Assembly (NCBI GenBank): GCA_043718025.1
Contig: JAYSWN010000052.1
Location: 1 to 13,774, forward strand
Reading direction: 5' to 3'
DNA length: 13,774 nt
Source of the DNA: Pseudomonadota bacterium
GTDB lineage: Bacteria; Bdellovibrionota; FAC87; UBA2466
The translations under genes and the position numbers were made by a program. Positions 4,491-10,451 of this stretch are shown one piece after another (position 1 is the first letter of the stretch; each line of letters starts with the position of its first letter). The notes below the pieces were generated by a model that was not told where the DNA came from, did not search any database, and saw nothing but the letters and a program-made list of their open reading frames with translations.

Positions 4491-5093
4491 TTATGGTTTC
4501 ACCAGATCTTCAAACGATTTCGAATCACCCATGCGGGAGTTAAGGGCGTCCCATATAAAAATATTATTGGTGTTTGCGCCCGGGTCATCACCGATATCTT
4601 CAAGGCGGCCGAATTCGTGTACCACCACATCGCGTCGCTGAGCGGACGAGGAGGCAAAAAATTCATCGCATAAATTGATGGTGGAGTGAACGAAACCCAG
4701 GGTGACATTCACAAACGCCACGGTCTCCTGTTGAGTTCCACAGCGCCCGTGTTTGTAAAAACTTACGCCGCTTTTAGTGCAGGCGGCAAAGCGGCGTCTG
4801 AGTGCTTTGCGGTAAAACCCTTCATTTGCAAAAAGGACTTTGAAATTTTGACCGTACTTGAATTCGTTTTTAAGCCGCGCCATTTGATTTTCAATCAGAT
4901 AAAGAGAGCGGTGAATAACCCGACAAGCCTCTTGACTGTCGCTGCTGAGATCCCGGCGCCAACTGATCGGCGCCGCGGCCTCGTTGCTCATTTTCATCGC
5001 GCCAGAATAAAAAGTATCATTAGTAGGACGCGGCACCGCCATCGACGCCGTACACCACGCAAGTCCCAAAGCAAAACCTAAGTTTCCACGCAT
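4491..5093 (-). CDS. Secreted protein resembling M35/aspzincin (lysine-specific metalloendopeptidase-like) proteins, with degenerate zinc motif HEFGR
   Basis: ATG 5093 follows SD GGGGGA and is preferred over TTG 5108. N-terminal signal-peptide-like segment, then C-x6-AFV...INLCDEFF...VVVHEFGR-x4-GD, the motif order I recall for aspzincins. Four Cys in the mature part. The CDS is well supported; the family call is by eye. Confidence 0.55.
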   Translation of the reverse strand: MRGNLGFALGLAWCTASMAVPRPTNDTFYSGAMKMSNEAAAPISWRRDLSSDSQEACRVIHRSLYLIENQMARLKNEFKYGQNFKVLFANEGFYRKALRRRFAACTKSGVSFYKHGRCGTQQETVAFVNVTLGFVHSTINLCDEFFASSSAQRRDVVVHEFGRLEDIGDDPGANTNNIFIWDALNSRMGDSKSFEDLVKP

Positions 5094-5128
5094 TTGATTT
5101 TCCCCCAAAGAGTGCGGGGTAACATAGA

Positions 5129-5189: not shown

Positions 5190-5897
5190 TCATGGAATTT
5201 TCGACCACAAGATCGGTAGGGGGGCAGGATCTATTTTACCGTCAAAAAAGATCGCGGTTTGGTGAAGCTTTTCATTCTTGGCGCCTAAGTCGTGCCAGCG
5301 GATCATGAAGTCAGTAAGCGCAATATAGCCACGCGCGCCACCGAGCGATGGGTCCATGAAATAAATATTTTGTTCATCAAGGCCAATCACCACCATGTAA
5401 TGACCGGCATCCCAAATGGCCGCATAGTCTTTACTGCCTTTATCGTCGTGGGCCTGACACTCGATCACTACGGTCTGCGCTTTGGCCAAGGCCAGAGCGA
5501 TTTCCGTTAGCGGGACGTTGTGTTTTACCTCTGCTTTGATTCCAATTTGATTTGAGAACGCCGCCATTTTATGATGATCGGTACCCTCTTTCGGGTTGGA
5601 GGCCATCGCTTTAATTAACGCTTCTTCCGTGTAGAGCTTTCCGTAATAGGCAAAAACACTTTGCATGGCCGCCGGACCACACGAGTAATTGGTAGATTGG
5701 GCGGCCAGAGGGACGCCCCACAATATTTTTGTGGTCGCCGGAAGGGTGATGCCGGCGTCGTCGGCTTGGCTAGGGACGATGCGATTCTCACCAGCCCGAA
5801 TCTTGGGCAAGCTGCCACCTTTGGGTTTCTCCCCGCATTGGACTAGTGAAAAAAGCGTAACGAGAAAAAGGAAAAATCGAATGGTGTGCTTGAACAT
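5190..5897 (-). CDS. Stand-alone C39-family (papain-like) cysteine peptidase, exported, possibly a lipoprotein
   Basis: Q67-STNYS-C73-GPAA oxyanion/nucleophile motif, GH166YMVVIG, YFMD182P. Basic-hydrophobic N-terminus ending LVQC21 (non-canonical lipobox). No ABC-transporter domains. Confidence 0.85.
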   Translation of the reverse strand: MFKHTIRFFLFLVTLFSLVQCGEKPKGGSLPKIRAGENRIVPSQADDAGITLPATTKILWGVPLAAQSTNYSCGPAAMQSVFAYYGKLYTEEALIKAMASNPKEGTDHHKMAAFSNQIGIKAEVKHNVPLTEIALALAKAQTVVIECQAHDDKGSKDYAAIWDAGHYMVVIGLDEQNIYFMDPSLGGARGYIALTDFMIRWHDLGAKNEKLHQTAIFFDGKIDPAPLPILWSKIP

Positions 5898-8409: not shown

Positions 8410-8700
8410 TTAGGGCTGCCCGTTTCTAATCACGCCGCTGATGTGCTCTAAAATTTGGGGATTAGTGAACGGGTCATCTGACTTTTCATCGCCAGTGCTC
8501 TGACCATTGCTGCCCACGTCGCCTTCGTCGCTCTCGGTATCTTGACCTTGACCATTGCCACCGACATCGCCGCGAGGAGACCCGCCATCAATTCCTTGAC
8601 CGTTACCCCCGACATCGCCGCGCCCATCGGACGCCAGTAGCGGCGAAGCGGAAAATAGAAATGCGGCTAAGGCGGTCAACATTAGACTACGGATCTTCAT
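8410..8700 (-). CDS. Small secreted Gly/Asp-rich repeat protein (96 aa; signal peptide plus 3x GDVG[G/S]NGQ)
   Basis: SD GAGGAG, ATGA overlap with the upstream gene's stop, Sec-type signal MKIRSLMLTALAAFLFSASPLLA. The repeat copies differ mainly at synonymous positions, which supports real coding status. Confidence 0.85.
   Translation of the reverse strand: MKIRSLMLTALAAFLFSASPLLASDGRGDVGGNGQGIDGGSPRGDVGGNGQGQDTESDEGDVGSNGQSTGDEKSDDPFTNPQILEHISGVIRNGQP
8500..8619 (-). repeat. Three 24-bp coding repeat cores at an exact 48-bp period (8596-8619, 8548-8571, 8500-8523)
   Basis: GGCGATGTCGGGGGTAACGGTCAA / GGCGATGTCGGTGGCAATGGTCAA / GGCGACGTGGGCAGCAATGGTCAG, encoding GDVGGNGQ / GDVGGNGQ / GDVGSNGQ. 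Confidence 0.92.
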
Positions 8701-9536
8701 GATTTCTCCTCGGTATGGGCAAAAAATTGAATATTCAGCTGATAGATCTCAGCCGCTTCTTCTTTGGAAAACTGAGCGTCAAACTCGTCACGAAATTGGC
8801 GGATGCGCTTCTTAGCTTCAGCAAGGTCTGTCGCGCGAATACGCAAAGTCATTGAGGTGATCTCTCGCTTTTCAACCGGCTGCTCTTCAAGCGCTTCCGT
8901 GGCGCGCTTCATCATCTGGGCGTGGTGCATTCGCAAAGCGTTGCTGGGCACGTCAGACGGAGTGATGATTGCCGGTTGGCGAACGGAGTAACCGCCATTT
9001 TCCTTTTGCAGGTAACCGAAGTAGCAGAGACGAATCAGTGCCTCTTTGATCTTTTCGGTGGGCACCTTTTTGCGTAACAGTAGGTGAAGGTTTTCGGCGC
9101 TGGCATCAACTCCCGGGATCTGCACAACCTGGCGAATGACGAAGTAATACCACTGAAAAATCTGGGCGAAGTCTGCCATATCGACGGCGTGTCGCTCGAT
9201 CGGAACTGGTTTTAGCCCCACCATCTCGCTATCCAGGCGTTGGCTGTCGCCGCCGAGGCGGTTGGTCTGCGCTTTTTCAACTAGTAGTTCAAGATAGCGG
9301 CGCTCAGAAGGAGTGTGCAGTAATCGACGGGCCAGACGATCGATCATGAGTTTACTCGGCAAACGGCTGCCCGCGAGCACCATGCCGATGCTTCGCGGCG
9401 ATCGGTAGCCCAAAACTCGGGAAAGGTAGCCTGCACAGCCTCTCTTGGCCGAAAGTCGGGGCGCAAGTTGAGCCGACGCCGCCGACAGAAACGCAGGGAA
9501 CTCTTTGTATTCAAATATGTTAAAAGGCTTTTCCAC
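8697..9536 (-). CDS. TIGR02147-family protein (N-terminal HTH-like region, C-terminal DUF4423), putative transcriptional regulator, ~279 aa
   Basis: Family hallmarks: NIFEY..F..FL start, LSRVLGYRSPRSIGMVLAGSR HTH-like segment, ERRYLELLV, QWYYFVIRQ, LRMHHAQMMKRATEALEEQPVEKREITSMTL, AKKRIRQFRDEF, IYQLNIQFF. GTG 9536 lies 6 nt after AAGG and downstream of a promoter, so it is preferred over the track start at 9698. Confidence 0.88.
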   Translation of the reverse strand: MEKPFNIFEYKEFPAFLSAASAQLAPRLSAKRGCAGYLSRVLGYRSPRSIGMVLAGSRLPSKLMIDRLARRLLHTPSERRYLELLVEKAQTNRLGGDSQRLDSEMVGLKPVPIERHAVDMADFAQIFQWYYFVIRQVVQIPGVDASAENLHLLLRKKVPTEKIKEALIRLCYFGYLQKENGGYSVRQPAIITPSDVPSNALRMHHAQMMKRATEALEEQPVEKREITSMTLRIRATDLAEAKKRIRQFRDEFDAQFSKEEAAEIYQLNIQFFAHTEEKS

Positions 9537-9558: not shown

Positions 9559-9587
9559 AATTTAGCAAAAATCAAAATTTGATGCAA
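9559..9587 (-). promoter_or_regulatory. Putative sigma70-type promoter of the TIGR02147 gene
   Basis: The minus strand reads TTGCAT (9587-9582), a 17-nt spacer, then TAAATT (9564-9559) with an extended -10 TG, ending 22 nt before GTG 9536. The near-palindrome ATCAAAATTTGAT (9571-9583) overlaps the spacer and the -35 edge. Confidence 0.6.
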
Positions 9588-9905: not shown

Positions 9906-10451
9906 CTATTTCATTTCTAGCACCAGCTGGTTTTCAGCATGGCGCGGGTGGTAGGGCGAGACCAGCGCCTCTCTGGATAAAATCATTTCAATTCCCATGT
10001 CGCCATCCTCGATCGACGGGTAGGGAATAATCTCTTTTACAAAACGACTCTTTTTTAGGCTTTTGGCAAGACCTGCCGCTTCGAGTTGACTGCTGCGAAT
10101 TCCTCTTAACAAAATGAAAACCTTCGGGGGTTCAGTGTAGACCACCGTGCCGTCGCTGCGTTGAAAGCTTTCGGCTTTTACCACTTTGACCTGAAACTCA
10201 GGAGCCAGCCGGATAGCCTTTTTTGTCACCGGATCGGTGAAATCGAAGGTCCACCTTTCACCGCCTTCGGAAGGCAGCAGATCGCGCCGCAATCCTTTTA
10301 AACTGGCGGCTTCACCGCTACCGCCCCTAAAAACACCTTCGCTACGAAAGACTCCCGTCGCCATGCGGGGCATGGTGAGAATTTCGGCGGTTTCGGGCAT
10401 GGCCATGAGCGGCACGACGAAAACAAGGGCGGTAAATAAGATCGATGTCAT
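9906..10451 (-). CDS. Exported hypothetical protein, AMIN-like envelope domain (181 aa)
   Basis: Hydrophobic N-terminal signal. Pattern LKGLRR...ERWTFDF...PPKVFILL...VKEI...QLVLEMK resembles AMIN-type beta domains. Begins 4 bp after the mutY stop. Domain call is by eye. Confidence 0.5.
   Translation of the reverse strand: MTSILFTALVFVVPLMAMPETAEILTMPRMATGVFRSEGVFRGGSGEAASLKGLRRDLLPSEGGERWTFDFTDPVTKKAIRLAPEFQVKVVKAESFQRSDGTVVYTEPPKVFILLRGIRSSQLEAAGLAKSLKKSRFVKEIIPYPSIEDGDMGIEMILSREALVSPYHPRHAENQLVLEMK

Follow-up and report, generated by a model that had tools for sequence, protein, structure and literature searches.

What could a 96-residue secreted protein be for when its mature part carries three copies of a single short core? 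The question is raised by the small gene at 8410..8700 on the minus strand of the window, that is, of the whole stretch of 13,774 nucleotides that was analysed; all window features given below lie on the same strand. A preliminary description of this DNA had reported a secreted 96-aa open reading frame with a signal-like start and three GDVG[G/S]NGQ cores, and the sequence bears it out. Residues 1-23 (8632..8700) form a predicted Sec signal peptide with a K/R start, a hydrophobic core and an LLA/S site, called by eye and by a hydrophobicity rule. Three cores, hereafter tags, follow: tag 1 (GDVGGNGQ, residues 28-35, 8596..8619), tag 2 (GDVGGNGQ, residues 44-51, 8548..8571) and tag 3 (GDVGSNGQ, residues 60-67, 8500..8523), the last with one substitution and a score below 9 by the family matrix introduced below. 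They start at G28, G44 and G60 (spacing 16 + 16), are separated by the spacers GIDGGSPR and GQDTESDE, and precede a 29-aa acidic tail. What had been read as a fourth NGQ at the C-terminus is present as RNGQP, which is not a full core. A ribosome binding site, GAGGAG (8706..8711), lies 5 nt ahead of the ATG, inside the end of an upstream regulator gene, whose stop overlaps the start of the small gene in an ATGA (8697-8700).

The three-core repeat is not a chance arrangement: three equally spaced 7-mers of the core type appeared in 0 of 2000 shuffles of the mature part, and triples of this kind occur in 4 of the 1125 called proteins of the genome with at most 200 aa. Over the ten codons of RGDVGGNGQG, copies 1 and 2 differ in 4 of 30 bases, all synonymous and none non-synonymous, exactly as first described; the eight codons of copy 3 show 5 synonymous and 1 non-synonymous codon differences from copy 1, and 4 and 1 from copy 2. 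The gene is spanned whole, with zero differences, by independently assembled contigs of two runs; since these runs may be the source sample, the identity excludes only a mis-assembly by one assembler. No family match for the protein was obtained in Pfam (best E 0.5) or NCBIfam, and a direct homologue search among 17 candidates of 52-168 aa returned only the protein itself.

Orthologues of the small gene were consequently found via synteny. The same locus, in the order MutY-like gene (by inspection), 181-aa gene, regulator, small gene, malic enzyme, recurs in all three other genomes of the genus, and one metagenome contig carries part of it; the regulator orthologues are 72-74% identical. In every partner gene a signal-like start is followed by two or more cores of the form x-D-[VA]-[AG]-[GS]-N-[GS]-x, the copy numbers in the five orthologues being 2, 2, 3, at least 4 and at least 2. 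The core spacings are 14 in G003, 19 and 12 in G001, 35 in G002 and 15 in L160; the exact 16-residue period noted earlier is true of the window, but with spacings of 12-35 overall it is not a conserved feature. The spacers, of 4 to 27 residues, are conserved neither in length nor in sequence, and the bodies differ widely, with total lengths of 214 aa in G002, 135 aa in G003 and 96 aa in the window. In G001 the small gene, with at least 4 cores, is split over two contig ends inside the repeats, the pieces having been assigned to one gene from synteny. A body of some 90 aa is common to G003 and G001 (39% identity over 89 aa), and the bodies of G003 and G002 align weakly (E 0.008 in a 4-sequence set). 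What is kept at the locus is the core D-[VA]-[AG]-[GS]-N-[GS], while spacing and body change. This agrees with the earlier view that the motif is conserved at protein level, and the comparison of repeat number and spacers that had been proposed for homologues was thus made on syntenic orthologues.

The window protein itself has almost nothing but tags left. Its 29-aa tail had no BLAST match in the orthologue bodies, and the idea that it is a remnant of such a body was dropped; that a body has been lost at the window locus follows from length and synteny, not from alignment. An orthologue body derived from a decayed zincin was likewise unsupported by a profile of 116 HE-motif segments. Two further signal-bearing proteins without a Pfam or NCBIfam match are encoded in the window: the 181-aa protein (9906-10451), which has a signal-like start and is syntenic upstream of the regulator in G001 and G002, and a 205-aa protein with a zincin-like VVHEFGRLE motif (4491-5108).

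Constant cores with variable spacers had suggested a RiPP-like multi-cassette precursor with the spacers as products, or else a periodic metal-binding or surface peptide; the acidic residues could also be cited in favour. We regard both as very improbable, as the spacers show no conservation and the period is not kept in the orthologues, most family members described below contain a single core without a spacer, the repeat families of Pfam and NCBIfam gave no match, and a modifying enzyme is not among the neighbours (regulator, malic enzyme, 181-aa gene and MutY-like gene). The one neighbour that would suit such a pathway is a C39-like peptidase (Peptidase_C39_2, E 1e-13) with a lipoprotein-like start at 5190-5897, 2.5 kb downstream of the 96-aa gene; it follows the malic enzyme gene in 4 of 4 genomes of the genus and, by proximity only, is a candidate for a processing peptidase. 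An RTX, curli or Fap repeat protein was also set aside, with a period of 12-35 and no match in either database. The notion of a multi-cassette precursor, and of a clean test case, seems to stand in another form, in which the core and not the spacers is the product.

The gene that overlaps the small one had been left out of the preliminary description, and it is this gene that explains the motif, the core itself being the likely product. With 125.8 bits for TIGR02147 (cut-off 50) and 127.9 for DUF4423 (PF14394, cut-off 30), it is a member of this regulator family. It occupies 8697..9536 and encodes 279 aa from a GTG at 9536, a start inferred from the orthologue alignment (the mechanical open reading frame runs to 9698). 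A candidate sigma-70-type promoter, TTGCAT and TAAATT separated by 17 nt (9559..9587), lies 23 nt before this start, and equivalent hexamers 17 nt apart are found in four orthologues; the pair was absent from the list of a consensus promoter scan. In G003 (L163) an inverted repeat, GTGCG-N14-CGCAC, surrounds the candidate -10 box about 60 nt upstream of the regulator start, with 4 of 5 matches in G001 (L161) and none evident in the window; it is a possible operator. The openly available main texts that we searched described no function, ligand or partner for TIGR02147/DUF4423.

The model of the regulator (pLDDT 92) consists of an XRE-type HTH, a winged HTH and a C-terminal domain, and the last is predicted to have the hood fold of HetR, a fold reported as novel in a single master regulator of cyanobacteria (PMC4649674). 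In a whole-chain search, residues 197-274 (8715..8948) matched the complete HetR hood, 76 residues (HetR 222-297), in the structure with bound ERGSGR, 4ynl (Z 6.5, rmsd 1.8). When the C-terminal domain was folded alone (pLDDT 89), 4ynl_B came first of 48161 chains (Z 9.1, rmsd 1.8 Å, 76 aligned) and HetR 4hri second (Z 8.2), the best non-HetR structure reaching Z 3.8. In Foldseek, 4ynl was the sole match of the domain at E <= 10, a weak one (E 7.3, TM 0.64/0.75), and the whole protein gave nothing at E <= 0.001, with HetR at E 0.25; no strands were formed in the monomer model of the domain. By sequence, an assignment as HetR was rejected: hood identity is 9%, and the HetR_C profile (PF18460) matches none of the 11 regulators of this genome, where its only match (E 0.217) contains a stop and lies elsewhere, nor is it among the best 25 of 191 families listed for 132 members. 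The N-terminal HTH is of the XRE/HigA type by profile and fold, which does not imply HetR's own type; residues 115-192 match winged-helix proteins, and the HetR matches cover the hood, at most residues 209-297.

The regulator and its small partner belong to a large set of similar modules. DUF4423 regulators number 11 in this genome and 2-25 in each of 34 family genomes, and are present in 127 of 151 sampled genomes of the phylum; for Bdellovibrio bacteriovorus, a table entry lists Bd3700 as a member (PMC12546842). The loci compared were the best-scoring DUF4423 matches among 301 at family level and 925 at phylum level, rather than a random sample. At family level, a downstream open reading frame was picked for 139 regulators; in 119 cases it lies within 30 bp, usually with an overlap, and nearly every such reading frame looks secreted. 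An unsupervised motif search in 108 coupled proteins yielded G-x-[ED]-[VIG]-G-[NG]-G-[GD]. The earlier statement that many secreted proteins of Bdellovibrionota carry a motif after the signal peptide was therefore right in kind and wrong in register, which is G-x-x-x-G-N-G and not G-x-x-G-N-G; the pattern it had proposed, G-x-x-G-[GS]?-N-G, gave 122 six-frame matches, mostly noise.

To score the tag independently of the window, the family matrix was learned without this genome and its orthologues. The 3731 called genes of the genome include 1186 with signal-like products. Of these, 16 reach a score of 10 or more, namely 7 of 7 regulator-coupled genes vs 9 of 1179 others, the latter mostly with Gly-rich runs, and so do 12 of the remaining 2545 proteins; the threshold of 10 was chosen after the scores had been seen, and one coupled gene scores 10.1. 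The window protein, with a score of 11.5 and a signal peptide by rule, belongs to this coupled tagged class. No coupled tagged gene accompanies 4 of the 11 regulators of the genome, and the hood residues do not separate regulators without a coupled tag from those with one (29 vs 103 rows). Across the phylum, 90 of 106 loci have a coupled signal-like gene, of which 61 score at least 10. In many partners the tag starts only a few residues from the predicted mature N-terminus. A lipobox-like site, followed by a linker and then the tag, occurs in 43 of 168 tagged proteins, and the tagged proteins show no evident shared context for cleavage.

By score, 169 of 208 partners carry a single tag and at least 6 carry two, the matrix undercounting tags (it scored the window's three-tag protein as two), and 11 of 170 complete partners have at most 135 aa. 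Multi-tag and very short partners are thus not unique to the window locus. Other very short DUF4423 partners are L253 and L262 (68-69 aa), L227 (90 aa), L250 (89 aa) and L238 (69 aa, containing an X), which include two small lipoproteins with a GTATGNP variant; all five are candidates for further pure signal precursors. Another module, that of the L001 clade (L051-L056, L106, L117, L121, L130, L133, L134, L155 and L159), carries a GFE[LIV]GNG tag and is unusually conserved across the family, with short branches; in this genome it adjoins a ribosomal protein L9-like gene (by inspection), and in the close orthologues L055, L057-L059, L097, L109, L114 and L129 no coupled tagged gene was found by the rules used. 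Near two regulators that lack a coupled tag, a divergent or second-downstream gene encodes a secreted protein with an SSGG[GE] variant behind the signal peptide (L010:363-1388, minus strand, and L011:3052-3744, plus strand).

If a single tag suffices in most modules, the 96-aa gene might be the decaying remnant of a larger cargo gene and its repeats the products of neutral slippage. The widely differing bodies at the locus, the lack of any homologue of the 96-aa protein among candidates of similar length and the degeneration of tag 3 and of several orthologue copies would suit such a history, which we nevertheless judge improbable: the tag copies differ mostly at synonymous sites and the spacers are unrelated, the signal peptide, ribosome site and ATGA overlap are intact, and all five orthologues have retained two or more tags. 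Even for a remnant, one functional tag would serve a multi-copy precursor.

A different doubt concerns what reads the tag. As it always stands behind a signal peptide, on the exported side, it could be a signal for sorting or processing in the envelope that is recognised not by the regulator but by another factor, the link with DUF4423 then being co-inheritance of adjacent DNA. Such a signal would be expected on many secreted proteins; the near confinement of the tag to DUF4423-coupled genes speaks against it, as it does against the general sorting tag envisaged earlier, and the multiplication of the tag on a cargo-free protein would have no evident purpose. To compare tags with regulators, 102 of 132 pairs were kept (coupled gene, score at least 10), which fall into 17 unrelated body clusters. 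Tag similarity rises with regulator identity; the tree used in this comparison was a quick one. Of the 6 variable tag positions, 3.2 are shared at 40-50% regulator identity when the bodies are unrelated vs 3.16 when they are related, and at 30-35% the values are 1.88 vs 1.93, unrelated and related bodies being alike; the nearest regulator with an unrelated body shares 3.09 tag positions vs 1.87 ± 0.11 at random. The tag follows the regulator, not the cargo. However, the tag and the end of the regulator are adjacent in the DNA, and linkage alone would make tags follow regulators; the position of the signal within the regulator was therefore examined.

In a set of 168 pairs (130 effective) with a score of at least 9, drawn from 132 + 90 loci, 17 of the top 20 co-varying column pairs lie in the hood, which makes up 87 of the 244 regulator columns. 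The strongest regulator residues are 250, 205, 226, 204 and 195-198; for tag position 2, the partners are residues 136 and 185 of the winged helix. As a control, twenty flanking cargo positions gave z values of at most 6.1 vs 10-19 for the variable tag positions, and their top pairs are not concentrated (9 in the hood, 9 in the HTH and 2 in the winged helix); the flanks were aligned by offset, ungapped, and the control thus understates shared ancestry. The column pair of residue 250 and tag position 3 was chosen as the best among about 1700; the two bear opposite charges in 121 of 121 regulator-tag pairs in which both are charged: residue 250 is basic and tag position 3 acidic in 106, the reverse holds in 15, and like charges occur in 0. 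Tag position 3 is acidic in 0 of 31 rows with an acidic residue 250 vs 106 of 116 rows with a basic one. In the window module, residue 250 is Asp (8787..8789) and tag position 3 is a non-acidic Val, in keeping with this rule, which is why the core here reads GDVGGNG and not the usual GxEVGNG.

Shared descent weakens the charge swap. The acidic state of residue 250 corresponds to 12 changes on the tree (FastTree, built without columns 246-254). Contrasts corrected for the tree gave 9 independent pairs on well-supported branches, 5.3 in the expected way and 0 in the opposite one, with a median p of 0.0625, so the swap is suggestive and not significant; strict acid/basic contrasts went the expected way in 4 of 4 (p 0.125), and the pair of residue 205 and tag position 6 reached p 0.25. 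Both linkage and the lack of significance in the tree-based tests thus leave room for a sorting signal, yet linkage predicts neither opposite charges at one hood position nor concentration in the hood, and we assign that explanation a low probability. A second apparent charge swap was seen between residue 185 and tag position 2 (basic/acid 29, acid/basic 6, like charges 0).

The co-varying residues can be placed on the known complex. PatS6, ERGSGR, sits in the lateral cleft of the HetR hood, where it forms main-chain hydrogen bonds to strand beta3 and contacts E253, E254, D256, D270, D278 and R223, and its binding releases HetR from DNA (as reported in PMC4649674). Mapped from the ends of the aligned range only (±2), the top residues (195-198, 204-205, 226 and 250) would lie close to the positions that correspond to HetR R223, strand beta3 and helix alpha12, the lining of the PatS6 site. 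The last six tag positions, [ED]-x-G-[NG]-G-x, have the glycine spacing of ERGSGR and HRGTGR; in what we take as the PatS register the window tags read VGGNGQ and VGSNGQ, with the glycines matching in tags 1 and 2, and they do not conform to the X-R-G-[ST]-G-R hexapeptide, both arginines being absent. The tag likely binds the hood domain of the regulator.

From these results, a hypothesis regarding the function of the locus may be put forward: the 96-aa protein is rather probably a precursor of peptide signals, in multiple copies, that address its own regulator in the manner of PatX and HetR. According to PMC12756182, PatX carries a Sec signal and depends on export; its cleavage yields HRGTGR, the peptide that HetR binds. 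By analogy, regulator and precursor would be made together from the overlapping genes, and the precursor would be exported and cut in the envelope to short peptides around (GD)VGGNGQ. These would return to the cytoplasm, plausibly through a peptide ABC importer; the genome encodes a family-5 (peptide-type) ABC solute-binding protein, as do 11 of 14 control genomes, so its presence is only permissive. There the peptides would bind the hood dimer of the DUF4423 regulator, perhaps adding a strand in the lateral cleft as PatS6 does, and alter its DNA binding, which would feed back on the two-gene unit. Three tag copies would give more signal per export event. In most modules one tag heads a larger cargo; in the lineage studied here the tag would have been retained and increased in copy number, next to a body that changed or became shorter.

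Should the tag bind the hood, export, processing and re-import have slightly better than even prospects against a route confined to the cytoplasm. Under the latter, the regulator would monitor export: the tag would bind the hood cleft on the unexported precursor and report a secretion backlog of its own cargo, with three tags raising sensitivity or bridging both clefts of the dimer, and cleavage and re-import would not be needed. All evidence for binding, co-variation and fold alike, fits this equally, and translational coupling would put regulator and precursor side by side. The HetR acids E254 and D256, which hold the free amino end of the peptide, appear to map to S/G228 and T230; with this clamp seemingly absent, the ligand may exceed six residues or may still be an internal segment, as the co-variation of tag position 2 with the winged helix may also indicate, and the cytoplasmic reading stays alive. 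The lipobox-bearing proteins with their linker and the lack of an evident common cleavage context point the same way. Against it, signal-less PatX neither interacted with HetR in the two-hybrid assay nor blocked differentiation, as given in PMC12756182, many tags begin close to the predicted mature N-terminus, and little would be left to report once the cargo body is gone, as in the window. Overall, we consider an export monitor a rather doubtful, minor possibility.

If the multi-copy precursor acts as proposed, and DUF4423 reads peptides as the hood does, a family present in most sampled genomes of the phylum would acquire both its ligand and its mechanism, and diderm predators would have peptide signalling whose specificity code is readable. 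What is new at the window locus is the nearly cargo-free multi-tag precursor and the co-variation evidence; the residue-level specificity rule, residue 250 against tag position 3, is testable at once, and the locus is the cleanest handle, with no enzyme body to confound a knockout and a peptide that can be synthesised directly. In a wider and decidedly tentative view, which we think unlikely to hold in full, the protein would be a dedicated pheromone precursor, DUF4423 a large family of hood-fold peptide sensors that provides dozens of orthogonal cell-to-cell channels in Bdellovibrionota as a diderm counterpart of RRNPP, the HetR-PatX switch might share its origin, and cargo-free precursors would mark the step from tagged cargo to pure signal. 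Our search of openly available main texts found no description of this tagged-precursor system, nor any report of a hood or HetR-like regulator outside cyanobacteria.

Compared with known systems, the locus would work like HetR-PatX but belongs to neither family. It resembles HetR (PDB 4YNL, 4HRI, 4YRV) as a dimer-type regulator with an N-terminal HTH and a predicted C-terminal hood, PatX in having a small precursor with a Sec signal peptide, and PatS, PatX and HetN in the x-x-G-small/polar-G-x pattern of the short ligand. Unlike in HetR, the middle domain of DUF4423 matches winged-helix proteins, the usual charges are reversed (acidic tag, basic pocket), the ligand gene is translationally coupled to the regulator, and a genome may hold up to 25 paralogous modules with clade-specific tags. 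In contrast to PatX, DUF4423 tags usually head a large secreted cargo, and the window precursor has three copies. Kfla_6221 (PDB 4G6Q), the best Foldseek match of the whole model (E 0.07; Z 6.7 over 148 residues), shares the winged helix and a similar C-terminal arrangement, but has no N-terminal XRE HTH, and its C-terminal match alone is weak (Z 3.5, rmsd 5.2). In the RRNPP systems of Firmicutes (Rap-Phr, PlcR-PapR, AimR-AimP), a regulator gene is followed by a small gene for a secreted pro-peptide, many paralogous cognate pairs occur per genome, and the sensor is a TPR superhelix. The gene-pair logic is the same here, with a predicted hood as the sensor and a diderm as the host.
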